Shown: one piece after another, positions 44,915-64,000 of the stretch | Position numbering within the stretch: position 1 is the first letter of the stretch | How the letters are laid out: every line of letters starts with the position of its first letter | Assembly (NCBI GenBank): GCA_964574595.1 | Contig: CAZNOF010000009.1 | Span: forward strand, 2,996-66,995 | Source of the DNA: an uncultured Pseudomonadales bacterium | Lineage (GTDB): Bacteria > Patescibacteriota > Microgenomatia > UBA1400 > PJMF01 | Direction of reading: 5' to 3' | DNA length: 64,000 nucleotides | Notes under the pieces: generated by a model | The model's database searches: none | Seen by the model: only the letters and a program-made list of their open reading frames with translations | What the model was told of the DNA's origin: nothing | Translations under genes and position numbers: made by a program

Positions 44915-44986
44915 CGTCAGATATTCGGATTGTATTTGGGTAAGTTTTTCGCTATAGTAGAGACTTATTTTATTTTAATCTGCTCT

Positions 44987-47302: not shown

Positions 47303-47348
47303 CTCTTCTCTTACGGATTTTTTACACGTTGCCTGCTACAGTATCAAT

Positions 47349-48569
47349 ATGCGCAACGCCTTTCTCCTCATTTTCTTTGTATTATTTGTTGGTATCGTAG
47401 GTTCAGCCGTTCTGCCAGTTGTCAGCGATTTTGTTCACAAGCAAGTGATACAACTCTCCACAGCCGTTCCTGTTCCTTCACCAACTCCTGCTAACACATA
47501 CAACATCACAGCAGAAATAGATCCTAAATTGAAAAGCACGAATGGTCTGAATGTCTATGACTTTGCCGACAAAGTCACCAATGCGCGTGACCTCCAATTC
47601 ACTCCTGGCGGAGTACTGCTTGTTTCCGAAACTTCTGAAGGTAGAGTAGTGGCGTTGCCAGATCGTGATAAAAACGGCAAAGCTGATGAAGTCAAAACAG
47701 TCTTGAAAGGCTTAAAAAAACCTCATGGCTTAGCTTTTTATCAAGGAAAACTCTTTGTGGCTGAAGAAAATAAAGTTGTTCGTTACATCTGGAATGAGGC
47801 AGATCTTACAGCTCAAAAAGAGAAAGATTTATTCTCACTACCAAGTCAATTTGTCAGTCGTCACTTTACGAGAGGTCTTGAATTCGACAAAGCCGGTAAC
47901 TTATATGTCTCAGTTGGCTCAACTTGCGACACTTGCTTAGAATCGAATGATCAACTGGCTAGTGTTCTCATTACAAATGCTGACGGCTCCTCACCACAGG
48001 TATATGCCAAGGGTCTTAGAAATGCCGTTTTCTTAAAGTTAAATCAAAAAACTGACCAGATTTGGACAACTGAAATGGGTAGAGATATGCTGGGTGATAA
48101 CATCCCACCAGATGAAATCAACATCTTACAAAAGGAGGGAAACTACGGTTGGCCGTACTGTTATGGAAACCAAGTCAAAGATAATACGTTCAAAGAGGGA
48201 AATCCAATAGATTGTCTGAACACAGTTTCTCCAATCTACCAAATTCCCGCCCACTCAGCACCACTTGGTTTGACATTCATTCAGTCAGCTATGTTTCCAG
48301 ATGACTGGCAAGGTGACCTGCTTGTTGCATATCATGGCTCATGGAACAGAACGACTCCAACCGGTTTTAAAGTAGTCCATCAGAAAGTATCGGGGAATAC
48401 CGTCATAAGTGAAGAAGATTTTTTAACAGGGTTCTTAAATAGTCCAAAACCAAGCGATGCAGTTGGCAGACCAGTTGATCTCGAATTTGACCAAAATGGC
48501 CATCTATTTGTCTCTGACGATAAGGCCGGCAAAATCTACATGATTTCTGCAGGAAATCGAGCACAATAG
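47349..48569 (+). CDS. PQQ-dependent soluble sugar (glucose/sorbosone) dehydrogenase-like beta-propeller
   Basis: PHGLAF, GNYGWPYCYG and HSAPLGLTF motifs, with an N-terminal anchor. Confidence 0.55.
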   Translation: MRNAFLLIFFVLFVGIVGSAVLPVVSDFVHKQVIQLSTAVPVPSPTPANTYNITAEIDPKLKSTNGLNVYDFADKVTNARDLQFTPGGVLLVSETSEGRVVALPDRDKNGKADEVKTVLKGLKKPHGLAFYQGKLFVAEENKVVRYIWNEADLTAQKEKDLFSLPSQFVSRHFTRGLEFDKAGNLYVSVGSTCDTCLESNDQLASVLITNADGSSPQVYAKGLRNAVFLKLNQKTDQIWTTEMGRDMLGDNIPPDEINILQKEGNYGWPYCYGNQVKDNTFKEGNPIDCLNTVSPIYQIPAHSAPLGLTFIQSAMFPDDWQGDLLVAYHGSWNRTTPTGFKVVHQKVSGNTVISEEDFLTGFLNSPKPSDAVGRPVDLEFDQNGHLFVSDDKAGKIYMISAGNRAQ

Positions 48570-48647
48570 ATCTAGTTTGTCACTGATTGTTTTATATATC
48601 CCACTCTAGACCTTTCGCCATATCTTCGCTATACTGATACACTATTT

Positions 48648-51647
48648 ATGGCAAAAGAAGTAATCAAAATTACTGGCGCTCGCCAGCATAATTTAAAGAA
48701 CATTTCAATGGAAATTCCTAAGAACCAGTTAGTGGTTTTAACAGGAATGTCCGGCAGTGGAAAAAGTTCATTGGCTTTTGATACCTTATACGCGGAAGGT
48801 CAACGCAGGTATGTAGAAAGTCTGAGTTCTTACGCCCGTCAGTTCTTGGGAGTCATGTCAAAGCCCGAGGTAGACCAAATTGAAGGGTTATCGCCTGCCA
48901 TTTCTATTGACCAAAAAACCACCTCACACAACCCACGTTCCACGGTTGGAACAATTACTGAAATTTACGACTACATGCGTTTACTTTTTGCCAGAGTTGG
49001 TCACCCTCACTGCCCAAATTGTGGCAGAGAGATTTCTACCCAAACGGTCGATCAAATTGTGAATCACATCATGGATGAACTTGATTTGCGTGCGGCTTCT
49101 GGCTTAGCACGCATGTACCTTCTGGCCCCCGTCGTTAGAGAACGAAAAGGGGAGTTCTCTGCACTTTTCGAATCGCTTCAGAAAAAAGGCTACCAACGTG
49201 TCCGTATAGATGGAGTTGTCTACGAGATGAGCCAAGATTTCTCGCTCATCAAAACCAATAAACATACCATTGAAGTAGTGGTTGATCGGTTATCCATCAT
49301 TAAGAAAGAGCTAGGCGATGAAGTCACCAGAAAAAACTTTAGAAGTAGATTATCCCAATCAACAGAAGAAGCCCTAAAGCTGGCTGATGGCATGGTCACA
49401 GCAGCATTTATTGATGATGCCTCACTCGAATTTCCAACCAGTCCTAAATCATTTACTAATAAATTATTTAGTGAAAAGTTCGCCTGTAGTTTCTGTGGCA
49501 TTTCACTTCCTGAAATTGAACCAAGATTATTTTCTTTCAACTCTCCAGAAGGTGCTTGTGAAACATGTAGTGGACTAGGGTCTCTTCTCAAAATTGATCA
49601 GCCTAAAATTCTGGCTCCTTCGTTAACTTTAAGTGAAGGCGCCGTCATTCCTTTTTCTCGAATGTTAAGCAATGACACATGGTGGTCTAGACTTGTCAAA
49701 ACAGTCGTTGAAGAGGCAGGCTATGATTTCCGAAAAACCGCATTTCAAGACATGAAGCCAGAGGTTCAACAGATGTTGCTCTTTGGTTCTGAAAAAGTCT
49801 ATCAGGTTGAGGGTGAAAATCGATTTGGCCGCCAAACCATGATTGAAGAAAAGTTCGAAGGGTTCATCAATAATCTTGAGCGCCGTTATCATGAAACCGA
49901 TTCTGAATTTATTCGCAAAGAAATTGAAGAGTTTATGGAGCGAACTATCTGTCCAAAATGTCATGGCACACGCTTAAAACCAGAACCACTTTCTATCACT
50001 ATTGACGAAAGAAACATTGCCGAAATCACAGGCATGCCGATTGATAAAGCAGTTTCCTGGATCAAAAAAATCAATGAGAAACCCACTTCAGAAGATGAAA
50101 GTATCAACAAAACTGTTTTGTCAGTTAAGGAATTTACTATTGGCGAATCGATTCTCAAAGAAATTTCCGTTCGCTTAAAATTCTTGTCCGCAGTAGGTTT
50201 GGATTACCTGACTTTACATCGTGAAGCTGCTACTTTAGCCGGTGGTGAAGCTCAGCGAATTCGGTTGGCATCACAAATTGGTACGGGTCTGACTGGCGTG
50301 CTTTATGTCTTAGACGAGCCTACCATCGGATTACACCAACGAGATAATTTACAACTCATTGACACGCTAAAAAATCTGCGTGACAAAGGTAACTCAGTCG
50401 TGGTGGTCGAACACGATCGAGATTTAATGCTGGCTGCTGATTACATTTTTGACTTTGGACCGAAAGCTGGTAAACACGGCGGTCAAATTGTGGCTGAAGG
50501 AACTCCTGCCCAAATTATGAAGGATCCTCACTCAGTTACTGGCAAGTATTTAAGCAGACAAAAACAAGTGACTCGCTATGGAAAAAAGGCAGCTACAGAA
50601 GCCCAGCTACTTGACCCAGAAGCTGGTCCAAGTGCCATCTCATCTCAACCTGCAATTAGAATTACTGGCGCCTCTCACCATAATCTAAAAGATGTGGATG
50701 TCTCATTCCCATTAAATACTTTGACGACAATTACAGGGATTTCTGGTTCAGGTAAATCCACACTTCTTCACGATACTCTTTACTACAACTTAGCCAAACA
50801 ACTTGAAAAATCAATTGATCAACGACCAGGAGAAATTACCAGCATTAGTGTGCCTGAAGAAGTCAAAAGAATCAGTTTAATTGATCAAAGTCCAATTGGG
50901 AAAACACCTCGCTCGAATCCGGGTACCTACACTAAAATTTTTGACTATGTTAGAACGGTTTTCGCCAACACCAAAGAAGCCCGTGTTCGCGGATATACTT
51001 CAGGCAGATTCAGTTTCAATGTGAAGGGTGGTCGCTGTGAAGCCTGTCAGGGTGATGGTCAATTAAAAATTGAAATGCAGTTCTTGCCGGATATTTATGT
51101 AGAATGTGACGTTTGCCACGGAGCAAGATATAACGAAGAAACATTAGCCGTGAAGTACAAAGAGAAAAGTATTGCCGACGTTCTGGCCATGACAGTTGAT
51201 GATGCCGCAGAGTTCTTTTCGGGACACAGCACTTTACGCAACAAACTCAAAACATTACAAGAAGTAGGACTTGGATATATTGAGATCGGTCAACCCGCGC
51301 CAACATTAAGTGGAGGAGAGGCGCAGCGCGTCAAACTCGCGAGAGAGCTGTCTATTCGAACCACCGACCACTGCATCTATTTGCTCGATGAACCAACAAC
51401 CGGTTTACACTTTGAGGACATTCAAAAATTACTCCAAGTCTTAGAGCAACTGGTATCTCAAAATAATACTGTTATTCTTATTGAGCATAACTTAGACGTG
51501 ATTAAGAACGCTGACTGGGTGATTGATCTGGGTCCTGAAGGTGGTGAAAAAGGTGGACAAATCATTGCCACTGGCACCCCATATCAGGTTGCTCATAATC
51601 CTGCTTCTTTTACCGGTCGATTTTTAAAAGAAGAAATGGGTCTGTGA
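48648..51647 (+). CDS. uvrA: excinuclease ABC subunit A
   Basis: Two ABC ATPase modules (GMSGSGKSSL, GISGSGKSTL), Zn-finger Cys clusters, 999 aa. Confidence 0.9.
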   Translation: MAKEVIKITGARQHNLKNISMEIPKNQLVVLTGMSGSGKSSLAFDTLYAEGQRRYVESLSSYARQFLGVMSKPEVDQIEGLSPAISIDQKTTSHNPRSTVGTITEIYDYMRLLFARVGHPHCPNCGREISTQTVDQIVNHIMDELDLRAASGLARMYLLAPVVRERKGEFSALFESLQKKGYQRVRIDGVVYEMSQDFSLIKTNKHTIEVVVDRLSIIKKELGDEVTRKNFRSRLSQSTEEALKLADGMVTAAFIDDASLEFPTSPKSFTNKLFSEKFACSFCGISLPEIEPRLFSFNSPEGACETCSGLGSLLKIDQPKILAPSLTLSEGAVIPFSRMLSNDTWWSRLVKTVVEEAGYDFRKTAFQDMKPEVQQMLLFGSEKVYQVEGENRFGRQTMIEEKFEGFINNLERRYHETDSEFIRKEIEEFMERTICPKCHGTRLKPEPLSITIDERNIAEITGMPIDKAVSWIKKINEKPTSEDESINKTVLSVKEFTIGESILKEISVRLKFLSAVGLDYLTLHREAATLAGGEAQRIRLASQIGTGLTGVLYVLDEPTIGLHQRDNLQLIDTLKNLRDKGNSVVVVEHDRDLMLAADYIFDFGPKAGKHGGQIVAEGTPAQIMKDPHSVTGKYLSRQKQVTRYGKKAATEAQLLDPEAGPSAISSQPAIRITGASHHNLKDVDVSFPLNTLTTITGISGSGKSTLLHDTLYYNLAKQLEKSIDQRPGEITSISVPEEVKRISLIDQSPIGKTPRSNPGTYTKIFDYVRTVFANTKEARVRGYTSGRFSFNVKGGRCEACQGDGQLKIEMQFLPDIYVECDVCHGARYNEETLAVKYKEKSIADVLAMTVDDAAEFFSGHSTLRNKLKTLQEVGLGYIEIGQPAPTLSGGEAQRVKLARELSIRTTDHCIYLLDEPTTGLHFEDIQKLLQVLEQLVSQNNTVILIEHNLDVIKNADWVIDLGPEGGEKGGQIIATGTPYQVAHNPASFTGRFLKEEMGL

Positions 51648-51667
51648 ACTTCTTAAAGAAATAGTAA

Positions 51668-53533
51668 ATGAAAAAAATAGCCTACTTTTGTCTAGTATTT
51701 TTTCTTGCATTAGGAGCCTTTTTCACTCTTTCTTCCGTTGCCTTTGCAGACAGTGATTTTTCAGTTTCCCTTCAATCAACCTACACCGTTGTAACAAACG
51801 GAAATACATTTGTTGAGCAGAAATTTGAACTCACTAACAACACTCCTACTTATTATGCCAAAGACTATGCTGTAGAAATTGGCTCGAGTAAACTCAATAA
51901 TGTCCGAGTTTCCGATAGCCAAGGAGAAATTCCCGCGAACATTGTGACTGGCGAGAACAAGACTTCTGTAGGGATCAGTTTTCGTGATCAATTAGTAGGA
52001 GAGGGGAAAAGTCGAACTTTTGTGATTACCTTTGAGAATCCAGACTCCTCACAAATTAGCGGTAACGTTTTGGAAGTGGACATTCCGAAATTACTGAAGG
52101 CGAAAGAGTACAGCAAATATAAAGTCATCGTCAAAACACCAACTCAATTTGGCAAACCTGTTCGAGTAACTCCCGGGAACTATATTTTGTCAGAAGACTC
52201 TAAAAACATTACCTTAGAGTTCAATGATTTAGGCGAACAAAGTGTGTCGGCACTTTTTGGAAACAAGCAGGTCTTTGATTTTACCGTCATCAATAATGTA
52301 GAAAACCCAACCAGCAATTTAGGGGTAGTTCAACTCGCTCTGCCACCAGATACAGCGAGACAAAAAGTCAACTACATTTCACTAGATCCGCCACCAAAAG
52401 AAATGGCCAGAGATCTAGATGGAAACTGGATAGCTACATATGAAGTTGCCGCGCAAAAGAATCTGAACGTAGCTTTGACTGGTAAAGTAATGATTACGCT
52501 AGATGGAAACCAAGAACTTTACTTAGCACCACCAAGTAACCATTTAACTCAATCGCAGCAGTATTGGGAAAGTACAAATTCGCAAATTACTCAGCTTGCC
52601 AAACAATATCCAAATCCGAAAAGTATTTATGACTATGTGGTAAACCATTTGACATATAACTATCAAAGGGGAGAAAACACAACAAATGAGCGGTTGGGCG
52701 CAGTACGTGCCCTAACAACCCCGTTGAATGCCGTCTGCCAAGAGTTTACCGATCTATTTATTGCCTTAGCCCGTGCGAATCATATTCCGGCACGTAGAGC
52801 GGTAGGGTATGCCTACACTGCCAACAGCCGATTGAGACCTCTCGGATTTGTGCAGGACACCTTACACACTTGGCCAGAGTACTATGATAAATCAAAAAAC
52901 GAATGGATTCCTATTGACCCCACTTGGGGCAATACGACTGGTGGAATAAATTACTTTGATCAATTTGACTTTAATCATGTGGTTTTCTCAATCAATGGAG
53001 AGTCGAGCACGCTACCTTACGCCGCGGGGTCGTACCGAAAGGAAAGACAGATCACAAATAATATTGAGGTGAAGTTTGGCAACGAAATGCCTTTACCAAC
53101 TCCCAGCTACCACTTAGAGCTCATTCGAAAACCGATATGGAAATCTTTCTTAAACTCACAGTACACCCTGCAAATTACCAATCAGACAGGAGTCGCTTGG
53201 TATAATATCCCCATCCAAGTCATTTCGGACAATCCGCAAGTTCAACTCGATAGTTCAGAAGCACATTTAGATTATTTATTACCATATCAAACAAGAGAAA
53301 TTTCAATCACGGCTGTGACAGCACAAAAATGGAAGTCTTATCCATTTCGCTTGACAGTCTTAGTTGATAGCCTATCATCAACCTATGATCTCAACACCAG
53401 CCTCAGCCTCCAAGGCGCGCTCGCTCCAAACGTCATTGCAATTGGCGTGGTCGGGGGTGTGGTCATCGTTGCCGCACTCACCTGGAGTGTACTGGTTTCT
53501 AGACGATCACGACACCGTTCTGTACGTCGGTAA
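51668..53533 (+). CDS. secreted transglutaminase-like protein with an intact Cys-His-Asp triad and a C-terminal TM anchor
   Basis: Signal peptide. AVCQEFTDLFIALARANHIPAR (Cys), HTWPEYY (His), IPIDPTWG (Asp). C-terminal IAIGVVGGVVIVAALTWSVLV followed by RRSRHRSVRR. Confidence 0.55.
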   Translation: MKKIAYFCLVFFLALGAFFTLSSVAFADSDFSVSLQSTYTVVTNGNTFVEQKFELTNNTPTYYAKDYAVEIGSSKLNNVRVSDSQGEIPANIVTGENKTSVGISFRDQLVGEGKSRTFVITFENPDSSQISGNVLEVDIPKLLKAKEYSKYKVIVKTPTQFGKPVRVTPGNYILSEDSKNITLEFNDLGEQSVSALFGNKQVFDFTVINNVENPTSNLGVVQLALPPDTARQKVNYISLDPPPKEMARDLDGNWIATYEVAAQKNLNVALTGKVMITLDGNQELYLAPPSNHLTQSQQYWESTNSQITQLAKQYPNPKSIYDYVVNHLTYNYQRGENTTNERLGAVRALTTPLNAVCQEFTDLFIALARANHIPARRAVGYAYTANSRLRPLGFVQDTLHTWPEYYDKSKNEWIPIDPTWGNTTGGINYFDQFDFNHVVFSINGESSTLPYAAGSYRKERQITNNIEVKFGNEMPLPTPSYHLELIRKPIWKSFLNSQYTLQITNQTGVAWYNIPIQVISDNPQVQLDSSEAHLDYLLPYQTREISITAVTAQKWKSYPFRLTVLVDSLSSTYDLNTSLSLQGALAPNVIAIGVVGGVVIVAALTWSVLVSRRSRHRSVRR

Positions 53534-54845
53534 AGCCAAGGATTTAAAAAATAGAATTCAATCGTATAAACTCTGGCAAGGAACTACCGGCAAAACTCGT
53601 CGTTTGGTTTTTCATGCTAAATTCTTGAAGCATCAGGTGTTGGATAGTGAGCTAGAAGCTCTGCTTGTAGAAGCTGAACTTATTCGCACGCATCAGCCAC
53701 AGTACAACATTTTATTAAAAGACGATAAAACACCACTTTATGTCCAAATCACAGACGATTTGTATCCAAGGGTCATCACAATTCGTAAAAAAGAAGTGGA
53801 AAAGTTTAAAATTCATGGTAAAGTCTTCGGCCCTTTTCCAAGTGGCTTTAAAGTAAAGGAAGTACTTCACATTGCTCGAAGAATTTTCCCATACTGTAAT
53901 GCACCTAGAAATGCGCTGTATGGAAAACCAGAAAATAAACCGTGTTTTGATTATCATTTAGATCTATGTAATGGAGCCTGCATTGGTGAAGTCACACCCG
54001 AAGAATATGCCGCTACGATTGATCAGCTGAAACTTTTCTTGCGAGGAAAGAAAAAAGAAGTGATTAGGACAATTGAGGCTGAAATGAAAGAAGCCTCAGA
54101 CAATGAAAAATATGAGTATGCGGCAGATTTACGAGACAGAATTTCGTTAATTAAAGAAGTGACTGAAAAACGATATCAGCTTCGCCCTGAACTCACTTTA
54201 CCCAACTTAAAGGAATCTTTACGCGCTGAAGGCCTAATTTATTTACGACGACTACTTTCAACTCACTTCAATTTACCAAAGACGTATCCACTTACTAGAA
54301 TTGAAGGTTATGACGTGAGTAACATTCAAGGCACAAATGCCACTGTTGCCATGCCGGTTTTTATTAATGGCCAAGCCGCCAAAGATCAATATCGATTGTT
54401 TAATATTAAAACATTAGACACACCAAATGACTTTGCCATGATGCAAGAAGCACTGACTCGTCGTCAGAACCATTTAGAATGGGGAGCCCCAAATTTAATT
54501 TTAATTGACGGTGGTAAAGGGCAACTCAGAGCTGCCTTAAAAGTTTGGCAATGGCACTGTCCGGTGATTTCTATTGCGAAAAAACCAGATCGAATTATTA
54601 TTCCCTACTATGACGATACGAAACAAGAATCTGCCAGCAGAAAAAAATCAGAAAAAAAGAAGTCAGAACCAACTGTTGTCCCATTAGAAGAACCAAACAA
54701 AAACCTGAGATTCCTGAAATATCACGAACTCAGACTTCCGGAGCAACATCCTGCCTTGGTTTTACTTCAACAAGTCAGAGATGAATCTCATCGATTCTCC
54801 AAGTTTCAACATACTCGAATGCGCGACCGAAGTATGTTAGAGTAA
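53385..54845 (+). CDS. uvrC: excinuclease ABC subunit C, short form without an obvious C-terminal (HhH)2
   Basis: GIY-YIG PGVYWFLDDHDTVLYVGKAKDLKNRIQSY, UVR-like and UvrC-homology regions. 5' boundary uncertain: TTG at 53364, ATG at 53385, or GTG/TTG at 53436-53469. Overlaps the preceding CDS by at least 65 nt. Confidence 0.75.
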   Translation: MISTPASASKARSLQTSLQLAWSGVWSSLPHSPGVYWFLDDHDTVLYVGKAKDLKNRIQSYKLWQGTTGKTRRLVFHAKFLKHQVLDSELEALLVEAELIRTHQPQYNILLKDDKTPLYVQITDDLYPRVITIRKKEVEKFKIHGKVFGPFPSGFKVKEVLHIARRIFPYCNAPRNALYGKPENKPCFDYHLDLCNGACIGEVTPEEYAATIDQLKLFLRGKKKEVIRTIEAEMKEASDNEKYEYAADLRDRISLIKEVTEKRYQLRPELTLPNLKESLRAEGLIYLRRLLSTHFNLPKTYPLTRIEGYDVSNIQGTNATVAMPVFINGQAAKDQYRLFNIKTLDTPNDFAMMQEALTRRQNHLEWGAPNLILIDGGKGQLRAALKVWQWHCPVISIAKKPDRIIIPYYDDTKQESASRKKSEKKKSEPTVVPLEEPNKNLRFLKYHELRLPEQHPALVLLQQVRDESHRFSKFQHTRMRDRSMLE

Positions 54846-54849
54846 TCGC

Positions 54850-55212
54850 ATGGGATTTATTAAATCAATTATCATTACCCTGATTTCAATTTTTCTGTTG
54901 GCGACTATCGTACCGTCAATCACTTACACCAGCTGGGCAACTCTCTTGATTGCCAGTATTGTGCTGACATTCCTTCAGAAAATCGTTCGTCCAATTCTGA
55001 AGATTCTCTTCTTACCAATTAATATTATTACGTTGGGTCTCTTTTCTTGGATCATCAATGTGCTCATCCTGTGGATGGCCATGTTTATCGTGCCTGGCTT
55101 TCACATTAGCAACTTAATTATTGGCAGTTATCATCTAGGAAGTATTTTTAGTCTCTTGCTGGTATCTTTTGCATTGAGCCTATTTGAATCCTTAATTGAT
55201 CTGGTTATCTAG
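54850..55212 (+). CDS. four-TM membrane protein of the phage-holin-4_2 (YvlD-like) type
   Basis: 120 aa, four hydrophobic helices, MGF start typical of PF04020. Confidence 0.35.
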   Translation: MGFIKSIIITLISIFLLATIVPSITYTSWATLLIASIVLTFLQKIVRPILKILFLPINIITLGLFSWIINVLILWMAMFIVPGFHISNLIIGSYHLGSIFSLLLVSFALSLFESLIDLVI

Positions 55213-55250
55213 TTGATAGCATAGAAGGGCAAAAGAGGTATAATACGCTC

Positions 55251-56213
55251 ATGTCTAAAAAACTCAGTGCTATCCTTTTCTTGTTGGGCATTTTTTGTGC
55301 CTTGACCAGCTTCTCCAGTCCAGCCTTTGCGGCCTCACCGGTCCCAGCTGTAAAGAAGGTGAGTCCAACTCCCAGCCCTTCAGACATCCCGGTTGTTGCC
55401 ACCACTTCGGCAATCGCCACGGAGAGTGCAGTTGCTACTCCAGCAGCTCAAGTTGAACAAGTCATACAACAGAAAAATGACAAAGACATTACGGAAACCA
55501 CGAGTAAGCAGAAAGATAAGCTAGTTGAAATTTTGGATCAGAATCCGATCCAACCTGCTTCCTGGTACAACTTCTTACAACATGGCGTCCGCCGAGCAAT
55601 TTCCAATGGGGTACCAGCAAACATTATTGTCTTAATTCTGTTGTTTCCAGTGATCACATCCGTCATTTCATTCTCACGCCACGTAGTCGGGTTGAAAGGC
55701 TTTGGTGTTTACACTCCAGCAGTTTTAGCTGTGGCTTTTGTATCTACCGGAATTGTGAATGGAATCCTGTTGTTTGTAATCGTACTACTTGCCGCTATGT
55801 TCATGAGAAAGCTACTCAGCAGATTAAACTTACAGTATTTGCCCAGAACGGCCATGTTACTCTGGGGCGTTTCCATCGTCACACTGGTTGTTTTAATGGC
55901 TGCTTCCTTCTCACAATTTAGCAACTTATTTATTATTAATATTTTCCCATTATTAATCATCATGTTGTTAACTGAGAACTTTATGGAATCACAACTGGCG
56001 AGTAGTCAGTCAGAAGCTCTTCAGTTAACGCTAGAGACGTTGCTGACAGCAGTTGTTTGTTCTCTCATTATTAGTTCTGATCTCGTCCAAAAATACGTCA
56101 TTCTTCAACCAGAACTGACATTACTTATCGTGGCAGTGGTGAACATCATCGTTGGCCGATACTCTGGATTGAGACTCTTGGAATGGATCAGATTTCGCTC
56201 AGTAATTGAATAA
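55251..56213 (+). CDS. signal peptide + Ala/Ser/Thr/Pro-rich linker + 6-7 TM domain protein (7TM_transglut-like)
   Basis: SP MSKKLSAILFLLGIFCALTSFSSPAFA, a low-complexity linker, then about 7 TM helices. TATAAT ends 7 nt before the ATG. Confidence 0.4.
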   Translation: MSKKLSAILFLLGIFCALTSFSSPAFAASPVPAVKKVSPTPSPSDIPVVATTSAIATESAVATPAAQVEQVIQQKNDKDITETTSKQKDKLVEILDQNPIQPASWYNFLQHGVRRAISNGVPANIIVLILLFPVITSVISFSRHVVGLKGFGVYTPAVLAVAFVSTGIVNGILLFVIVLLAAMFMRKLLSRLNLQYLPRTAMLLWGVSIVTLVVLMAASFSQFSNLFIINIFPLLIIMLLTENFMESQLASSQSEALQLTLETLLTAVVCSLIISSDLVQKYVILQPELTLLIVAVVNIIVGRYSGLRLLEWIRFRSVIE

Positions 56214-56220
56214 TCATTCT

Positions 56221-57504
56221 ATGCCAAAAGCACGCGATTTATTGGGCATGAACGCCCGCAACCAGCTTTATACTTCACTCAATTCCAGTAATGCAAAGCG
56301 TTTTGGAACCTCAAAGTACGCTACGAAAATTTTGCTAGAAGGCAAGAATATTCCTACTGCCAAAGTCTTTGGGATTTTGGGAACGAATGAAGACGTCAAA
56401 GACTTTCCGTGGGAAACCATGGAGAAAAATTTTGTGGTGAAACCCTCAAATGGAAACGGTGGAAAAGGAATTGCCATTTTTAGAACCCAACAACCTGACA
56501 AGCAGCATTGGCTAGATGCCATTGGCCAATCCTGGAGTCTTGATGACATTAAACTGCACTGTGCAGACATTTTGGAGGGTGAGTACAGTACCTATGGTGC
56601 TAACCCAACCATCATTGTGGAAGAGCGCGTTCCTATTCATTCGAAATTTTTAAAGTATGTTTATAAAGGTACTCCAGATATCCGAGTGATTGTTTTTAAT
56701 CACGTCCCAGTCATGTCCATGCTGCGCTTACCTACCAAAGAATCAGAAGGTAAAGCCAACTTACACCAGGGAGCAATTGCTGTTGGAATTGATATGTTTT
56801 CAGGTGTCACAACCTTTGCCATTACGGGTGACGGCACACCCATTTCAGTATTGCCCGATTCAAAGAGAAAATTAAATGGCATCAAAATTCCATCTTGGAA
56901 ACAGGCATTAGAAATCGCTGTTCAAGCTGCTGATGCCGCCGGCTTAGTTTTCTGTGGTGTCGACCTGTTTATTCATGAAGAAAAAGGTCCCATGGTGGTG
57001 GAACTCAATGCTAATCCGGGACTTTCTATTCAACTGGCAAATCACGCCGGGCTGAGAAGACGACTTGAAAGAGTAGCTGACATTACGGTGTTGAATCCAG
57101 AGCACGGTGTGCGTATTGGGCAAGCACTTTTTGCAGAAAACTATTCCGATAAAATTAAAGCTGAAGAAGGCTTAGTAATTATCTCTCCTTTTGAAACAGT
57201 GACATTAACGGGAGACAACAAAGTAAAAGAAGAAGTTCCCGCACTGATTAATACTGGTCGATTTAGAAGTGCCATTTCCAGTGATTTAGCAAAGAAATTA
57301 GGCCTAATCGATCTCGATGATTTACTCTGGTACCAACAAGAAAAAGAAGAAGGGAAAGTACCCGTTATTGAAGTGAATTTCAAACTCAAAGATAGAAGAT
57401 CAACCGGCGCGATGGTAGTTTCTAAATCACTTAACAAGTCAAAATACCAATTAGAAATTGGACGCAATGATCTCAAAGGATTCTTAGTAGGAGAAGGAGA
57501 ATGA
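56221..57504 (+). CDS. RimK-like (alpha-L-glutamate-ligase-related) ATP-grasp ligase fused to a C-terminal retropepsin-like (Zn_protease, PF05618-like) domain
   Basis: N-terminal LLGMNARNQLY. ATP-grasp motifs VVKPSNGNGGKGI, DIRVIVF, ANLHQGAIAV, GVDLFIHEEKGPMVVELNANPGLS. C-terminal VPVIEVNFKLKDRRSTGAMVVSK...YQLEIGRNDLKGFLV. The tracked TTG at 56206 is replaced by the ATG at 56221. Confidence 0.55.
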   Translation: MPKARDLLGMNARNQLYTSLNSSNAKRFGTSKYATKILLEGKNIPTAKVFGILGTNEDVKDFPWETMEKNFVVKPSNGNGGKGIAIFRTQQPDKQHWLDAIGQSWSLDDIKLHCADILEGEYSTYGANPTIIVEERVPIHSKFLKYVYKGTPDIRVIVFNHVPVMSMLRLPTKESEGKANLHQGAIAVGIDMFSGVTTFAITGDGTPISVLPDSKRKLNGIKIPSWKQALEIAVQAADAAGLVFCGVDLFIHEEKGPMVVELNANPGLSIQLANHAGLRRRLERVADITVLNPEHGVRIGQALFAENYSDKIKAEEGLVIISPFETVTLTGDNKVKEEVPALINTGRFRSAISSDLAKKLGLIDLDDLLWYQQEKEEGKVPVIEVNFKLKDRRSTGAMVVSKSLNKSKYQLEIGRNDLKGFLVGEGE

Positions 57505-58469
57505 GCGATCTACTCACAGATTTGATCCCAACCAACTTTCAAACTGAAAAAGTGAAATTTTTTCAAGATTTTTCGTACAATCCACAACTCACTTACGTTC
57601 GCACATTTACCAAAGCAGAGCTTACTCGTTGGGGAAAACCAAACGCAGAGCTAACTAAACATGCCGAGAAAATGCTCAAGGCATACGTGCCAATCACCGA
57701 ACAAGAAACGTATGTTGATGAAGAATACATTTTACAAAAGATTGAATTATTTAACCAAATGTACCATGTCAAAGAACCAATCATTGCCAGTTTTTCCAAA
57801 CAACAGGTAACCAAATGCAGGGTTAATGGTAACCATATTTACTTTCAGCTACCAATTCGTTACACGGCCAGTAAACTAGCCGACTTACTTCGTCACGAAC
57901 TTGAAACGCACGTGTTACGTTTTCTCAACAATCAACAACAAGATTGGGGAGCCAAGAAAATTGATGGAATTAGCTTTAGAAAAACAGAAGAAGGACTAGC
58001 TGGATTACACACCCACTTATTAAGAAAAGATAAAGTCATTCGCAAAAGTTACTTAACTTACTTGGCTGTTTCTACCGCGCAAAAAGCTTCATTCTCAGAA
58101 GTATTTCGTGTGATGCGAGAACAAAAAGTTTCACCGGAAACATCCTGGAATATTGCTTTGCGAACAAAACGTGGAGTTGAGGATACATCACAACCAGGTG
58201 GACTGACCAAAGATATTAGTTATCTTGAAGGTAGTGTGCTCGTTTGGCAGTGGCTTATGAAATCAGGCAATCACGCTAAAGATTTATATATCGGCAGAAT
58301 TGGACTGGCTGACCTTCCAGATTTCCTTCCCATGGCAAAAAAAGAGAATCTCGTTTATCCTCACTTCTTAGATGACTATGAGCAGTATATTTCACACATG
58401 GATGAGATTGGAAAAGTAAATCACTTTGACCAACTCACATTTACATATGACGGAACAAACACACCTTAA
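57501..58469 (+). CDS. QEGLA-motif (DUF1704-like) protein
   Basis: KTEEGLAGLHTHLL (a QEGLA-like motif) and HELETH. ATGA overlap with the upstream gene; SD GGAGAAGGAGA. Confidence 0.45.
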   Translation: MSDLLTDLIPTNFQTEKVKFFQDFSYNPQLTYVRTFTKAELTRWGKPNAELTKHAEKMLKAYVPITEQETYVDEEYILQKIELFNQMYHVKEPIIASFSKQQVTKCRVNGNHIYFQLPIRYTASKLADLLRHELETHVLRFLNNQQQDWGAKKIDGISFRKTEEGLAGLHTHLLRKDKVIRKSYLTYLAVSTAQKASFSEVFRVMREQKVSPETSWNIALRTKRGVEDTSQPGGLTKDISYLEGSVLVWQWLMKSGNHAKDLYIGRIGLADLPDFLPMAKKENLVYPHFLDDYEQYISHMDEIGKVNHFDQLTFTYDGTNTP

Positions 58470-59427
58470 CGCCAGCTCTCGAATCATGTTTGAAGAAGCT
58501 CAAAAAATGGGTATCTCTTGTCAGACATTTGGCGATCACGAAACAGTTTTAATGAAATTGGACAACCTACAATGGTTCGTGCGTGGTTCAAGAACGTCAG
58601 CTCAATCTTCCGTTGGAAAAACCATCGCTGATTACAAGCCGCTTACTAAAAAAATCCTGACCGCCTCAAACCTTCCAACTGCAAAAGGGATAGTTGTTCG
58701 TTCGGTTGACGATCTTGATCAACTAAAAGACTTTCACTTTCCCGTCGTGATGAAGCCGCTAGCAGAGAGACATGGCAAAGGTGTTGTGGTCGGTGTAAAA
58801 GACATTCCGGCCGTGGAAGAAGAGCTTAAAAAAAGTGATCAAGCAATGTTGATAGAAGAGTCACTCAAAGGAACTGAATACCGCATCATCTGTGTAAACT
58901 ACAAATTTGTGGCAGCGGCATTTAGAAAACCTGCACACGTAGTTGGAGATGGCAAAAGGACCATTCAAGAACTCGTGACAGAAAAGAATAAACATCCATG
59001 GAGAGGTGAGGGTCATAGTAACAACCTCAGTCTGATTCAAATTGACGAGATCGTGATGGCAAATTTAGCAGAACAAAGCATGACATTGGACAGCGTTCCA
59101 TCTGCAAAACAAGAAGTGTTACTTCGAAAAACGGCTAATCTTTCTACTGGAGGAGAAGCATGGGATGTTTCAGCTGATGTATCTGACGAAAATAAAAAAC
59201 TATTTGAGGACATCGCCAAAGCATGCGATTTGAATGTGGCTGGAATCGATATGATGTGTCAAAACCTGACAGATCCAATCACTAAACAGTCACAAGCTGG
59301 AGTGATTGAAGTCAATGCGTCTCCAGGCTTAAGGATGCATCATTATCCAATGCAGGGTCAACCTATCAATGTAGCGAAAATCATTTTAGAGTTTGTTATT
59401 TCAAAGGAAAAAGTATGCCAAAGTTAG
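58426..59427 (+). CDS. stand-alone cyanophycin-synthetase-like ATP-grasp ligase (paralog 1)
   Basis: LRKTANLSTGGEAWDVSADVSDEN...NVAGIDMMC...GVIEVNASPGLRMHHYPMQGQPINVAKIILEFV closely mirrors the CphA ATP-grasp core. 5' end ambiguous (TTG 58426, ATG 58447 or 58486). Confidence 0.55.
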   Translation: MTNSHLHMTEQTHLNASSRIMFEEAQKMGISCQTFGDHETVLMKLDNLQWFVRGSRTSAQSSVGKTIADYKPLTKKILTASNLPTAKGIVVRSVDDLDQLKDFHFPVVMKPLAERHGKGVVVGVKDIPAVEEELKKSDQAMLIEESLKGTEYRIICVNYKFVAAAFRKPAHVVGDGKRTIQELVTEKNKHPWRGEGHSNNLSLIQIDEIVMANLAEQSMTLDSVPSAKQEVLLRKTANLSTGGEAWDVSADVSDENKKLFEDIAKACDLNVAGIDMMCQNLTDPITKQSQAGVIEVNASPGLRMHHYPMQGQPINVAKIILEFVISKEKVCQS

Positions 59428-60491
59428 ACGCAAATTATTTTTATGTGAATACAAAGCTAGGTGGAAGTAAGAAACGTGACGAAGTGGTCTCCTTTAGTGT
59501 GCAACTGGTTTTAGCTGAAGCAGAAAAGTTGGGCATGAAGGTGGAACACATTACCGGAACAGAAATGTTTCAGCTTGAGTGGAATGGGAAAACGACCTAT
59601 TTTCACGACAGAATTCCACTCAAAACAAGTGAGTTTGCAGTCACCACATGTATGGATAAACACTTAACAAAAATCTTCTTAGACCGTGCCGGAATTCAGT
59701 CACCAAAAGGATATTTAATTGAACAGTCGGATGATGAAGCGTATCAAAAACAAGTTTTTGATGCCTTGCAAAAACCATTAGTTGTGAAGCCCACTCGTGC
59801 CAGTCACGGAGATGGAATTACTCTAGGTGTTACTGATTTTGAAACCTATAAAATGGCTATTCAAAAGGCAATGACCGCTCGAGATTATGCAGATAGTGCT
59901 GTCGAAATTGAAGAAGAATTTACCGGAAAAGAGTACCGTATCACGGTCTCACAAGAAAAAATCATTGGCGTGATGCATCGTATTCCAGCAAACATTGTTG
60001 GCAATGGTGTTTCCACCATTACCGAACTAGTCAAAGAAAAGAATCAACATCCCTTCAGAAATTTATTTGGCGATAACGTGTACCAAGTCTATGGCAAATT
60101 GATTCTAGATGACGATGCCATCACCATCTTAAAGGAACAAGGCTTCACGCCAGATACAGTACTTCCAAAAGATCAAAAAGCCAACATTAAAAAAGTCTCA
60201 AATATGATGGCTGGTGGCGATGCCATCGATTTAACACCTGATATTCATCCATCAGTGCGAGAAATTTGTTTGAAAACCATTCAGGCTATTCCTGGATTGA
60301 GTATTGCCGGTATCGACTTTATGACCAAGGATTTGTTTGCTGAACAAACACCAGACACCTACCGAATTGTAGAAGTAAATCATAATGCTGAATTTGGCAT
60401 TCATCACTTTCCAATGATTGGTGAGCCACAAAATGCGGCTCGTGAATTTTTAACGATTTTGTTTCCTGAATTAAAAGATCGGAAAGAATAA
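59415..60491 (+). CDS. stand-alone cyanophycin-synthetase-like ATP-grasp ligase (paralog 2)
   Basis: KKVSNMMAGGDAIDLTPDIHP...SIAGIDFMTKDL...YRIVEVNHNAEFGIHHFPMIGEPQNAAREFLTILFPE. Collinear with paralog 1. Confidence 0.55.
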   Translation: MPKLDANYFYVNTKLGGSKKRDEVVSFSVQLVLAEAEKLGMKVEHITGTEMFQLEWNGKTTYFHDRIPLKTSEFAVTTCMDKHLTKIFLDRAGIQSPKGYLIEQSDDEAYQKQVFDALQKPLVVKPTRASHGDGITLGVTDFETYKMAIQKAMTARDYADSAVEIEEEFTGKEYRITVSQEKIIGVMHRIPANIVGNGVSTITELVKEKNQHPFRNLFGDNVYQVYGKLILDDDAITILKEQGFTPDTVLPKDQKANIKKVSNMMAGGDAIDLTPDIHPSVREICLKTIQAIPGLSIAGIDFMTKDLFAEQTPDTYRIVEVNHNAEFGIHHFPMIGEPQNAAREFLTILFPELKDRKE

Positions 60492-60492
60492 T

Positions 60493-61257
60493 ATGACAGA
60501 ACTGAACCTTGCACCATTTGGCATCACCCGGTCTGAAAAAGTGGTCTGGCGCTTTCCTGAACAAGCTAAAGATGTTCTAGAAAACATTAAGAGTAAATCA
60601 CTTAGAAAGTTCTTACGAAACGCAAAGGAAGCACTTGCCACTAAGTCTATACGATATGAATATAAGGTATTAAGTGATCAGGATTTTATTGATTGGTTGC
60701 CATATTACACTGAAAAGATGACAGAGAACGGATATCAAATTATTGCATCTACAGAGTGGTTACAAAAAAAACGTGACGCCGGGTTAACCGTGGAAGGCAT
60801 GTTTTTTTATAAAGATGACAAACTCGTGGGAACCGGTATTTTCACCAAGGATCAATCAGAAAAAGCCACATTTGCGTTTAAAGCGAGTGATCGAATTGAT
60901 TTAAGTAATGAAGCAAATTCATCATTAGGAGCAGTCATTGATTACCTCTTTCTAGATGAAATGGTGCAAAAACAAGTCAAAATTATTTCAGCTGGCAGAT
61001 CAAAAAATGCTTTTGGCGTATTAAACAGTTTTGGTTATTTAGACTATAAACTGCGTTTTGGCTATCAGCCATCTGTTGATCCACTGTCACCATTACTAGA
61101 AACGGTGCCTGTCAATGAACAAGGCGTGATTCTTTTTTATGGACTAAAAGATAATAAGTTAGCACTCTACGAATTCAAGCCCAAAGGTTTTGAAATTCAG
61201 TTTGAACAAGCTCGCTTTGCCACACCAGAGTTGCCATTCGTGGTGATTGAGTATTAA
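60493..61257 (+). CDS. hypothetical protein (254 aa), last gene of the ligase cluster
   Basis: ORF tightly packed 2 nt after the ligase stop. No confident motif; possibly a GNAT-like fold. Confidence 0.35.
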   Translation: MTELNLAPFGITRSEKVVWRFPEQAKDVLENIKSKSLRKFLRNAKEALATKSIRYEYKVLSDQDFIDWLPYYTEKMTENGYQIIASTEWLQKKRDAGLTVEGMFFYKDDKLVGTGIFTKDQSEKATFAFKASDRIDLSNEANSSLGAVIDYLFLDEMVQKQVKIISAGRSKNAFGVLNSFGYLDYKLRFGYQPSVDPLSPLLETVPVNEQGVILFYGLKDNKLALYEFKPKGFEIQFEQARFATPELPFVVIEY

Positions 61258-62392: not shown

Positions 62393-62483
62393 TGACACTA
62401 TCGAACAATTCTTCAGGCTTGTTTTTTTTGTACTAATTATTATGATACTGATATCATTTGATTTATTAAAGTTCGACACACTT

Positions 62484-64000
62484 ATGAAATACCTTCTCTT
62501 CATTTTTTTCTTCATCAGCGGCTTTTTTCTTTTCTCATCACCAGCATCCGCAACCCTATCATTTAATGGCGGCGACTATACCAACATGTGTGGCAGCGGC
62601 TTAGCAGCCACAAATCACGCTTGCAGTGGCAGTTGTAATCCCACCACCGGCGTCTGTTCAAATTCTGGCAATACTGTGGTCAAATTTATCTGTGATGGCA
62701 GAGTAAATCAATGTAACCAAAATGAGTCAGCCTTTGCTTCTTCTCAATCCTTAGATTATCCAGGAACCAATAAATCAGTCGCAATTGTCGTTTTCAACAA
62801 GACTTGCCGACAAAATGGTGCCTGGATTTGTACAGATAATGACATGAAAGATTATATGGTTTGGTACTCTGGATCTACTCAGGGATCAGCTACAACTCAA
62901 ACAACCTCCACAACTACCAACACTTGCAGTGACCAACAGCTTGTCCTCATCCAGTTCCAAAGACCTGGAGCAAATAGTTGGATGGGTGGAAGTAGTTTCA
63001 CCAATCAAAACATTCAAAGAAATGAACAGATCAACGTCAACTGTTTCGCCAAGAATGGCACCGCGCTATTGAGCGGTGGCTATATCGATATGACTGATCC
63101 ATATGGCAGAAGTAGAAGAGTTTCAGATACTTCCGAGCTTAGAAACTTTACAGTTGATACGAGTGGCACGTACTCATTTACTTGTCGATCAGCTACGATC
63201 AACCAGTGTACCAGTGGCGACTCATTCCAAGTCCAAGGCACGAATCCACCAACTCCAACACCCATTCAAAGTCAGCCACCCCAATATATTCCGTCACCCA
63301 CTCCTCAACAAAGTTCCTGTGATAATCTGGAAATTGTGAGTGGCAACAACAGTCTCGTTCCCGCCACTGTTGTCTTGAGAGCTCGCGGAAGTGACAACAA
63401 GGGAAGTATCCAGCGCTATCGATATTACTTTGGAGACGGCCAACAAGCTGAAACAGATAAAGCAGAAATTACTCATCAATACAACGTTTCCGGCAGTCTC
63501 GTGGCTCGAGTAGATGTCAAGGATAGTAAAGGAAATTGGAAAACAAGTTCTAACTGTGAAACAACTGTCACCGTTCAATCCGCTCCTGTTGAGTCATTTA
63601 AATCCGATTGTTCAAACATTTACATTACGGCAGATAACAGTAGTCGAGCACCAAGTACTGTCAAATACGAAGTCAGTGGATACGATAACAAAGGCAGTAT
63701 TCAGGCCTATCGCTTGGATTTCGGAAACGGCATCGTTAAAGAGGGAAATGGTCGTACATTTGAACAAAAATACATGCAAGCCGGAACCTATGAAGTTCGC
63801 GGGTATGTTAAAAATAGCCAAGGAAACTGGGTCGGCGGAGATGATAGCTGTCACAAGACAGTCACTATTGGCTCCTCAACTCCGTTAACCTCCCAACCTT
63901 CAACTGGCACTCCAACCATGTTGCCAATTGCCGGTGCGGTGAGTGGTGTGATTGGACTTTCCGTTCAGGCACTGAAGAAGCGGTTTGCTACTACATTGTG
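62484..64000 (+). CDS. secreted Cys-rich protein with two PKD-like repeats (3' partial, runs off the window)
   Basis: Signal peptide MKYLLFIFFFISGFFLFSSPASA. Repeats ...GSDNKGSIQRYRYYFGDGQQAE...HQYNVSGSLVARVDVKDSKGNW and ...GYDNKGSIQAYRLDFGNGIVKE...QKYMQAGTYEVRGYVKNSQGNW. LPIAG plus a hydrophobic stretch plus KKRF near the window end. Confidence 0.55.
   Translation, partial: MKYLLFIFFFISGFFLFSSPASATLSFNGGDYTNMCGSGLAATNHACSGSCNPTTGVCSNSGNTVVKFICDGRVNQCNQNESAFASSQSLDYPGTNKSVAIVVFNKTCRQNGAWICTDNDMKDYMVWYSGSTQGSATTQTTSTTTNTCSDQQLVLIQFQRPGANSWMGGSSFTNQNIQRNEQINVNCFAKNGTALLSGGYIDMTDPYGRSRRVSDTSELRNFTVDTSGTYSFTCRSATINQCTSGDSFQVQGTNPPTPTPIQSQPPQYIPSPTPQQSSCDNLEIVSGNNSLVPATVVLRARGSDNKGSIQRYRYYFGDGQQAETDKAEITHQYNVSGSLVARVDVKDSKGNWKTSSNCETTVTVQSAPVESFKSDCSNIYITADNSSRAPSTVKYEVSGYDNKGSIQAYRLDFGNGIVKEGNGRTFEQKYMQAGTYEVRGYVKNSQGNWVGGDDSCHKTVTIGSSTPLTSQPSTGTPTMLPIAGAVSGVIGLSVQALKKRFATTL

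Follow-up and report, generated by a model that had tools for sequence, protein, structure and literature searches.

A Patescibacteria variant of the rlo operon with a MATCAP-family peptidase, a degenerate retropepsin and a swappable ligase cassette, and a Glu-terminated membrane-protein tail as its candidate substrate

Systems that pair an amidoligase with a peptidase were reportedly predicted by comparative genomics in the 2009 amidoligase paper of Iyer and colleagues, and we know of no bacterial MATCAP/QEGLA homolog with a known substrate. In this work we analyzed a cluster of six genes (g1 to g6, all on the plus strand) in a 64,000-nucleotide (nt) stretch of contig CAZNOF010000009.1 (assembly GCA_964574595.1), hereafter called the window, whose positions serve as coordinates throughout (Table 1). 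The closest described system is the Pseudomonas aeruginosa rlo operon, which encodes a retropepsin (RloA), a seven-transmembrane (7TM) protein (RloB) and a RimK-like ATP-grasp enzyme (RloC) (Lormand et al., 2025, mBio, PMC12239564). RloA is secreted/periplasmic, binds eight Glu in a positively charged groove and cuts stretches of at least eight Glu, with D48N as the inactive control; no genome-encoded poly-Glu substrate was found for it in P. aeruginosa (PMC12239564). Deletion of rloB or rloC suppresses the hypo-osmotic lethality of a triple rloA (rloA1-3) mutant, rlo mutants have shape and beta-lactam phenotypes, and RloB was reported to be 96% proteobacterial (PMC12239564). RimK extends the C-terminus of RpsF with Glu and also makes free poly-alpha-Glu, and RimB binds RimK and regulates its activity (PMC12239564). 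On the peptidase side, human enzymes of the MATCAP/TMCP group have carboxypeptidase activity on acidic tubulin tails, which they also deglutamylate (PMC10499314), and in Photobacterium low salinity jointly induces a QEGLA gene and the ATP-grasp gene beside it (PMC10308900).

Judged by its sequence, the core of the window's cluster is not new but a Patescibacteria variant of the rlo operon and of the RimK/RimB system; it is identified as the RloB/RloC/RloA triad because a PF14402 7TM domain, a TIGR02291/PF14397 ATP-grasp enzyme and a RimB/RloA-type retropepsin fold are found in both. That no characterised example is known, as the initial annotation had it, is correct for the exact combination of genes and outdated for the core, already studied as the P. 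aeruginosa operon; the proposal that amidoligases and a peptidase form a system such as comparative genomics had predicted was supported. Our literature search returned no publication on the version from the candidate phyla radiation (CPR). Compared with rloABC, the 7TM protein of the window is without the PF14400 inactive transglutaminase domain; its retropepsin is ligase-fused, cytoplasmic and has lost the catalytic Asp, whereas RloA is a separate, secreted enzyme with an active D-T-G-A motif; the window also has a MATCAP carboxypeptidase and a variable ligase cassette; and its 7TM tail, in a CPR host, is acidic and not basic. With RimK-RimB(-RimA) the cluster shares an ATP-grasp alpha-L-glutamate-type ligase and a cytoplasmic retropepsin-like partner (RimB physically associates with RimK), and the acceptor there, ribosomal protein S6, is a protein C-terminus ending in Glu-Glu. 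Unlike RimK-RimB, the window has a ligase of the RloC subfamily, a 7TM partner and a dead protease domain, and its proposed acceptor would be the 7TM tail and not RpsF. In the CPR rebuild a pseudo-protease is fused to the ligase and a MATCAP peptidase is present; the amide-bond-forming enzymes of the swappable cassette are of three classes, and the 7TM tail is Glu-terminated.

The proteins of the window were used to annotate 103 related loci; the survey relied on a metagenome scan, and a single-protein scan of genome contigs gave five loci only. The host is a Microgenomates-like member of the Patescibacteria, and the names of homologs include Woesebacteria, Pacebacteria and Patescibacteria. 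Four of the CPR contigs (L013-L016) are titled 'uncultured Pseudomonadales', a label that looks wrong. The 7TM-g2 pair was present in every one of ~100 loci, which fall into two deep types and several genomic contexts. Type B loci (g2 50-94% identical to that of the window) have the order uvrA, transglutaminase, uvrC, PF04020, 7TM, g2, MATCAP, cassette, mnmA. In type A (g2 45-48% identical) the 7TM and g2 genes are followed by one or two RimK-type ATP-grasp genes, no MATCAP gene is present and the neighbours are unrelated. A divergent locus (L010) has MATCAP, g2 and 7TM in that order beside a g6 homolog in another context, and both MATCAP and g6 are tied to the 7TM-g2 pair in more than one context. 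Synteny in related genomes, on which the initial annotation had staked its proposal, was found in many of them, and the functional linkage of the genes is taken from this conservation across lineages, not from tight packing. The distribution of the uvr genes, mnmA and the transglutaminase gene marks these as neighbours by lineage synteny only.

The ATP-grasp part of g2 matched PF14397 with 200.9 bits (cutoff 31.4; E 3e-59) and TIGR02291 over amino acids (aa) 8-292 with 236 bits (E 3.8e-70); the latter score is below the equivalog cutoff of 314, and g2 is therefore regarded as a family member and not called an equivalog. It is 35% identical to Legionella and Aeromonas RloC and stays below the RimK-family cutoffs (TIGR00768, 68 bits against 143; PRK10446, 28 against 331). 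The C-terminal part carries the motif A-L-I-N344-T-G-R-F-R-S at 57241-57270 (Asn codon AAT, 57250-57252), in which Asn344 aligns with the catalytic Asp of AKIDTGA in type A homologs; among the 120 closest g2 homologs this position is Asn in 106 and Asp in 4. Direct comparison of this domain gave no PF05618 match at E <= 10 (only gag-asp_proteas, E 0.03), nothing relevant in the PDB with a profile of 25 sequences, and a non-significant hhalign alignment to Legionella RloA (E 0.16). Fold comparison did identify the retropepsin fold, and a 48%-identical type A homolog provides a bridge: it reaches PF05618 at E 1e-4 (below cutoff), and its AKIDTGAF aligns onto ALINTGRF.

Loss of the catalytic motif follows the presence of MATCAP. 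When motif states were tallied by alignment column over dereplicated, non-truncated loci, the complete K/R-[IV]-D-T-G-A was found in 13/13 type A loci, all of them without MATCAP. Degraded motifs were found in 49 MATCAP loci: NTG in 35, NTS in 5, DTK in 4, KTG in 2, and HTG, STG and NTT in 1 each. L054 has D-T-G-R without MATCAP, and L028 is a decayed locus. The diversity of the degraded forms suggests relaxed constraint on catalysis, with the domain itself kept. The alignments suggest that MATCAP has displaced the retropepsin as the peptidase, the domain probably being retained as a binding or regulatory module; Arg residues lie around what was once the active site (N-T-G-R-F-R). It is unlikely that the retropepsin-like domain does the trimming, as the original proposal had it, with Asn in the catalytic position, D48N having served as the dead control for RloA (PMC12239564).

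The peptidase encoded by g3 matched PF08014 (MATCAP) with 87.7 bits (cutoff 27; E 1e-24) and TIGR02421 (QEGLA) with 103 bits (E 1.4e-29); the second score is below the equivalog cutoff of 339, and g3 is therefore not the proteobacterial equivalog. Human MATCAP (7z5g) aligned over aa 5-312 (E 2.9e-29), including the HExxxH and EEGLA motifs, which are HELETH (57894-57911) and TEEGLA (57984-58001) at the metal site of g3; no signal peptide is present. By analogy with the human enzymes, trimming of tails is likely for g3. The locus resembles the tubulin TTL/TTLL-MATCAP/TMCP system in having a true MATCAP homolog, ATP-grasp ligases and an adjacent protein with an E or EE C-terminus, and its add/remove logic would parallel that of the ...EE(Y) tubulin tails. 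It differs in that there is no tubulin, the candidate substrate is a membrane protein, and the place of TTL is taken by RimK/RloC-type and CphA-G-type ligases; the parallel consists of an analogy plus the homology of one component (g3). Outside CPR, our search for a comparison for the tail idea found only an independent pair of MATCAP and a GshB-type ATP-grasp enzyme in Phyllobacterium, without a 7TM gene. That locus (L101, 4957-8807, on a chromid) also contains an N-formylglutamate-amidohydrolase-like gene, and its MATCAP homolog, of 777 aa, has a ~420-aa N-terminal extension.

The protein encoded by g1 matched PF14402 (7TM_transglut) at aa 124-318 with 109 bits (cutoff 25; E 3.5e-31) and only the C-terminal half of the NCBIfam RloB model NF052267. 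A signal peptide (aa 1-27) is followed by an 87-aa low-complexity linker rich in P, T, S and A and by ~7 transmembrane (TM) helices (aa ~115-307, by hydropathy). Legionella RloB consists of PF14400 plus PF14402 (PF14400 at E 1e-44), whereas g1 gave no PF14400 match and the CPR proteins have PF14402 only. A C-terminal motif, G-x-[RK]-L-x-E-x-x-R-F, is common to g1 and the RloB proteins of Legionella and Aeromonas. (The Aeromonas caviae replicon in our set, NZ_AP026896.1, L099, has 4.9 Mb and is listed as a plasmid in PLSDB, which looks wrong.) Because a cleaved signal peptide is followed by seven TM helices, the g1 tail is, on this sequence-derived topology, in the cytoplasm, where all the enzymes are as well.

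This tail is acidic in type B. Among 50 dereplicated type B 7TM proteins the last residue is E in 39 and the last two are EE in 31, many ending in EEE or EEEE, against background frequencies of 9.8% (E) and 1.8% (EE) in other open reading frames (ORFs) of the same loci (n=564); an acidic residue is found within the last four positions in 47/50. The sequence before the terminal Glu is often unrelated (...RFRSIIEEEE, ...SSDNNSQEEE, ...DDFPGLEE, ...DDHETPEE), and type B tails that do not end in Glu typically have E or D and then one to three residues drawn from K, R, S and N. Type A tails are basic (...RFRKLINS; terminal E in 2/18), and so are the proteobacterial RloB tails. Tail length in turn goes with the contents of the cassette between MATCAP and mnmA. 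All nine loci with a g4-containing cassette, the window included, have 0-1 terminal Glu on the 7TM tail, and 21/24 loci with an empty cassette have at least two (nominal Fisher p 6e-6). One of the three empty-cassette exceptions, L033, actually has g4 upstream of MATCAP, between g2 and MATCAP (about 10.3-12.3 kb). Together with L028, in which MATCAP is missing and g2 is split, L033 forms a separate type B cluster where g4 also goes with a tail lacking terminal oligo-Glu (...IIEKKS in L033, ...ILDKK in L028), and the pattern has therefore been seen at least twice.

The g4 and g5 products of the cassette align over the whole G domain of cyanophycin synthetase with conserved ATP-grasp motifs: against TIGR02068 (cutoff 850), g4 scored 320 bits (E 2e-95) at model positions 150-474 only and g5 226 bits (E 9e-67) at 158-475, and g4 matched CphA1 (7wac) at E 2.9e-54. 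Both also match the ATP-grasp domains of GshF/GshAB and Ngg. They share 29% identity, have lengths of 326-358 aa and, unlike CphA1, are stand-alone proteins always attached to the Rlo-like core; the N and Mur-ligase-like M domains of the N-G-M architecture are absent. Members of the CphA-G/GshF/Ngg clade ligate an amino acid to the alpha-carboxylate of a peptide. Among 5.8 billion proteins, g4 falls in a CPR-restricted family of ~320-aa proteins, with its nearest relative 66% identical; the 'cyanophycin synthetase' label given to this family by the Joint Genome Institute (JGI) is probably wrong.

The protein encoded by g6 had no match in Pfam or NCBIfam, the FemAB and FemAB_like families included. 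Its predicted structure (predicted local distance difference test, pLDDT, 96) has a GNAT architecture with the Fem-like extended GNAT fold, and the nearest folds are FemX (lipid II bridge formation) and MprF/L-PGS (lipid aminoacylation). It differs from FemX/FemAB and MprF in its size (254 aa against 330-400). The family is small (310 representatives among 1.84 billion proteins), and one distant member reached FemAB_like at E 1e-5, below the cutoff. A g6-type domain is fused to the C-terminus of ATP-grasp domains in P0354, P0361 and P0380 (554-795 aa); read as domain architectures, these fusions are a Rosetta-stone link between the GNAT family and ATP-grasp ligases. The use of an aminoacyl-tRNA donor by g6 is predicted from the modeled fold.

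The cassette is part of a hypervariable island. Compared with the closest relative (L097), amino-acid identities outside the island are 94% for uvrA, 91% for uvrC, 88% for g1, 94% for g2 and 85% for mnmA, and those inside it are 80% for MATCAP, 65% for g4, 43% for g5 and 61% for g6. Compared with L018, g2 is 91% identical but MATCAP only 42%, and MATCAP divergence tracks the cassette, not g2. The identities of g4 (56-65%) and g5 (37-43%) to their counterparts plateau regardless of the distance of the relative. DNA identity drops from 0.75-0.85 to 0.4-0.65 starting at ~57.6 kb (the g2/g3 junction) or 58.5 kb, and recovers after 61.25 kb. In the majority of loci the cassette holds none of these genes; the other contents found were g4g5, g4g5g5', g4g6g6', g4g6g5g5', g6 and g5, and gene order changes among near relatives too, being g4-g5-g6 in the window, L097 and L102 and g4-g6-g5 in L098. 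The gaps of 'empty' cassettes contain truB or ydjC, and a few loci have additional RimK-type ligases. Rather than being fixed components, the two CphA-like ligases and g6 belong to a variable cassette that most related loci do not have.

Tentatively, and at somewhat less than an even chance, we favor a reading in which an acidic C-terminal tail in the cytoplasm, probably belonging to the 7TM protein, is lengthened by the ligases, trimmed by MATCAP and bound by the dead retropepsin. We infer every chemical step, the acceptor, the amino acids and the physiological output. The system would act at the cytoplasmic face of the membrane. The RloC-type ATP-grasp domain of g2 would use ATP to add amino acids to a C-terminal carboxylate, most likely as alpha-linked L-Glu by analogy with RimK, and the most likely acceptor would be the cytoplasmic tail of g1 (...RFRSVIE). 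The retropepsin-like domain with N344 would have a binding or regulatory function towards the acidic tail without cleaving it, and the zinc carboxypeptidase g3 would have taken over the trimming role, removing residues from the tail end. In the sublineage of the window the encoded oligo-Glu tail would have been reduced to a single Glu and a swappable cassette of amide-bond formers added: g4 and g5 would use CphA-G chemistry to extend the C-terminal carboxylate by one residue, and the Fem-like g6 may, according to its modeled fold, transfer an aminoacyl group from aminoacyl-tRNA to an amine. Jointly, g4 to g6 could build a strain-specific tail as a post-translational counterpart of what other lineages encode. 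By analogy with Rlo, the output would probably be envelope or osmotic homeostasis through the 7TM protein. The general idea of tail addition and trimming put forward in the initial annotation survives in this form, and the roles it gave to the protease and the transglutaminase are unsupported. As for the cell-envelope substrate it named, the enzymes have no signal peptides and are cytoplasmic, and the evidence points to the cytoplasmic 7TM tail, although an exported product is possible.

The strength of the favored reading lies in three complementary patterns: with MATCAP, the protease is dead and the tail is acidic; with extra ligases, the tail is short. The Glu-terminated 7TM tail is a concrete candidate substrate for the Rlo/QEGLA enzymes. 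Precedents are the action of RimK on RpsF, that of the MATCAP/TMCP enzymes on tubulin tails and the chemistry of the CphA-G/GshF/Ngg clade, and the Phyllobacterium and Photobacterium gene pairs give further context. Several observations weigh against tail modification. The g1 tail of the window ends in a single Glu only. Loss of protease activity is not universal, L102 and L103 having D-T-G-R together with MATCAP, and the retropepsin assignment was reached via fold and transitive homology, not by direct sequence significance. The g2 protein is itself Glu-terminated in 24/74 dereplicated homologs (...LVGEGE, ...IRFDEE), above the 9.8% background, and acidic C-termini may partly come from composition or another constraint. 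Types A and B each form a clade, with the majority of g4 loci in a single subclade; the number of independent events is small, and p-values overstate the support. Hypervariable biosynthetic cassettes are more often associated with surface-exposed products than with a tail in the cytoplasm, and a Fem-like transferase needs an amine acceptor, for which a C-terminal tail is no obvious source. In the canonical system the periplasmic location of Pseudomonas RloA implies an extracytoplasmic substrate (PMC12239564).

There is a different possibility, less likely than not to be true but a serious competitor, in which g2 (with g4 to g6 where present) makes a free acidic peptide or polymer (poly-alpha-Glu or a heteropeptide), MATCAP sets its length and the 7TM protein exports it to the envelope as a polyanion, osmolyte or surface structure. 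Free poly-alpha-Glu is made by RimK, and a toxic exported product would fit both the secretion of RloA and the suppression of the rloA1-3 defects by loss of rloB or rloC. A hypervariable cassette between conserved flanks is typical of loci for exposed structures, and the extracellular linker of g1 is typical of wall-spanning proteins. However, no transport activity has been demonstrated for PF14402, and both CPR trimming activities (the type A retropepsin and the type B MATCAP) are cytoplasmic. Export also leaves unexplained that the oligo-Glu tail is found only in MATCAP-type loci and is shorter with extra ligases.

It is improbable, in our view, that the acidic 7TM tail is a docking site only, binding unmodified in the groove of the dead retropepsin and tethering the ligase to the membrane while the true ligase substrate is another protein (e.g., ribosomal protein S6) or a small molecule. 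A working poly-Glu protease would cleave a tail of this kind; in line with this, the tail is found only where the protease is dead and is absent in type A and Proteobacteria; the Arg residues around the former active site, and the positively charged RloA groove that binds eight Glu, would suit docking as well. But single-Glu tails such as that of the window would be poor ligands for a groove of ~8 Glu, and neither the strict co-occurrence with MATCAP nor the inverse relation between tail length and the ligase cassette is explained by docking.

We consider it about equally doubtful that the ligases and the Fem-like enzyme make or modify a stem or bridge peptide of peptidoglycan, or aminoacylate a lipid, with the 7TM protein handling a lipid-linked intermediate. 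ATP-grasp D-Asp ligases build peptidoglycan bridges, the nearest folds of g6 are FemX and MprF/L-PGS, and bridge composition varies between strains, as the cassette does; the shape and beta-lactam phenotypes of rlo mutants would also fit. On the other hand, g4 to g6 are absent from most loci while the core persists, no mur or fem genes are adjacent, g4 and g5 are closest to CphA, GshF and Ngg and not to Ddl or D-Asp ligases, and modification of wall or lipid leaves the MATCAP partner and the oligo-Glu tail without a role. A cyanophycin-like storage polymer made by g4 and g5 is very improbable: cyanophycin synthetase gave their best profile and PDB matches and is the JGI label as well, but we rejected it on architecture (G domain only) and scores far under the cutoff, there is no cyanophycinase nearby, and the genes are optional and always tied to the Rlo-like core. 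Even more remote, and largely refuted for g1 to g3, is that the genes form no functional unit and are neighbors through conserved gene order in a compact genome, as the packed, co-directional run that begins at uvrB and continues past mnmA, with promoter and terminator signals at chance, and the equally syntenic uvrA, transglutaminase, uvrC and mnmA genes might suggest, since the 7TM-ATP-grasp pair recurs with unrelated neighbors in type A, L010 and Proteobacteria, MATCAP and ATP-grasp genes are paired elsewhere, the g6-type domain is fused to ATP-grasp, and motif, tail and cassette states co-vary.

Taken further, tail modification might amount to a prokaryotic 'tail code', in which an oligo-Glu 7TM tail is reversibly lengthened by the RimK/RloC-type ligase, shortened by MATCAP, varied by the CphA-G-like and Fem-like ligases and read by the degenerate retropepsin; this fuller version is possible, but we would not call it likely. 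If true, it would supply a mechanism for a widespread, opaque family and reveal the class of substrates long sought for the Rlo and QEGLA systems. A bacterial forerunner of the eukaryotic tubulin TTL/TTLL-MATCAP cycle would then be at hand, and bacterial pairs of tail ligase and peptidase would be tied to the origin of the enzymes that modify tubulin. Genomes of roughly 1 Mb have kept the operon, and its cassette is hypervariable, which suggests importance for the biology of these episymbiotic bacteria.

A transglutaminase-core surface protein upstream (51668-53533) had been proposed as a possible crosslinker of the product. Its triad is intact, as claimed, with Cys in AVCQEF (52730-52747), His in LHTWPEYY and Asp in IPIDPTW. 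The gene is nested in a cluster of uvrB, GSDH-like, uvrA, transglutaminase and uvrC genes (context 44930-54845), an arrangement kept through the type B clade; the transglutaminase gene is missing from the type B loci L056, L072 and L080 and is not adjacent to the system in type A and L010. We rejected the transglutaminase as a component on this nesting and distribution; lineage synteny is the only support for a crosslinking role. A defense-system reading was also rejected, the PADLOC defense models giving no match for eight proteins at E <= 1e-3.

The six co-directional ORFs and their junctions were found at the positions given in the initial annotation when the junction sequences were read, overlaps included, and each of its family calls passed a profile or fold test. 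The start of g2 is almost certainly ATG 56221, because close homologs have 426-431 aa (427 aa typical). Plus-strand genes run from 44.3 to 64 kb with gaps mostly below 50 bp, and packing is dense throughout the window; we rejected tight packing as operon evidence, the entire window being equally packed. Scans of the window for promoter and terminator consensus sequences gave counts at chance and did not set the operon limits.

Table 1. Features of the g1-g6 cluster and its upstream neighbor (positions in the window)
Feature	Position	Strand	Description
Small 4-TM membrane protein	54850..55212	+	PF04020 (Phage_holin_4_2-like), Pfam E 3.8e-21
g1	55251..56213	+	RloB-like 7TM membrane protein, without inactive-transglutaminase domain
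g1 C-terminal segment GLRLLEWIRFRSVIE	56166..56210	+	Ends in Glu (...RFRSVIE); candidate acceptor or docking tail
g2	56206 or 56221..57504	+	RloC-type ATP-grasp fused to retropepsin fold
g2 ATP-grasp part	56221..57105	+	RloC-type, RimK-related; Mg-site motif VVELNANPGL 56995-57024
g2 C-terminal part (~115 residues)	57148..57504	+	RimB/RloA-type retropepsin fold without catalytic Asp
g3	57501..58469	+	MATCAP/QEGLA-family Zn metallocarboxypeptidase; ATGA overlap with g2
Hypervariable island	57501..61257	+	MATCAP plus ligase cassette, between conserved g2 and mnmA
g4	58426..59427, likely start ATG 58447 (326 aa)	+	Stand-alone CphA-G-domain-type ATP-grasp ligase
g5	59415..60491	+	Second, divergent CphA-G-domain-type ATP-grasp ligase
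g6	60493..61257	+	GNAT-fold protein, FemX/MprF/Sbb17-like

In every type B locus the PF04020 gene immediately precedes the 7TM gene, even in L056, where the uvr and transglutaminase genes are missing; type A loci and L010 do not have it. Its product is a possible accessory or seventh component. A TATAAT box was noted at 55239-55244, 6 nt before the ATG of g1, with TTGATA 20 nt upstream of the box; the spacer of this pair is non-canonical and the promoter scan did not call it. Judging from its position, the box may indicate a near-leaderless start of g1. Downstream of mnmA the window continues with a PKD-domain surface protein (62442-64000), which is followed by a sortase gene in the relatives L004, L097, L098 and L102. 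Elsewhere in the window, on the minus strand, we noted a 705-aa ORF with no Pfam match (17918-20035) and an M32 (Taq-type) carboxypeptidase (22178-23674).

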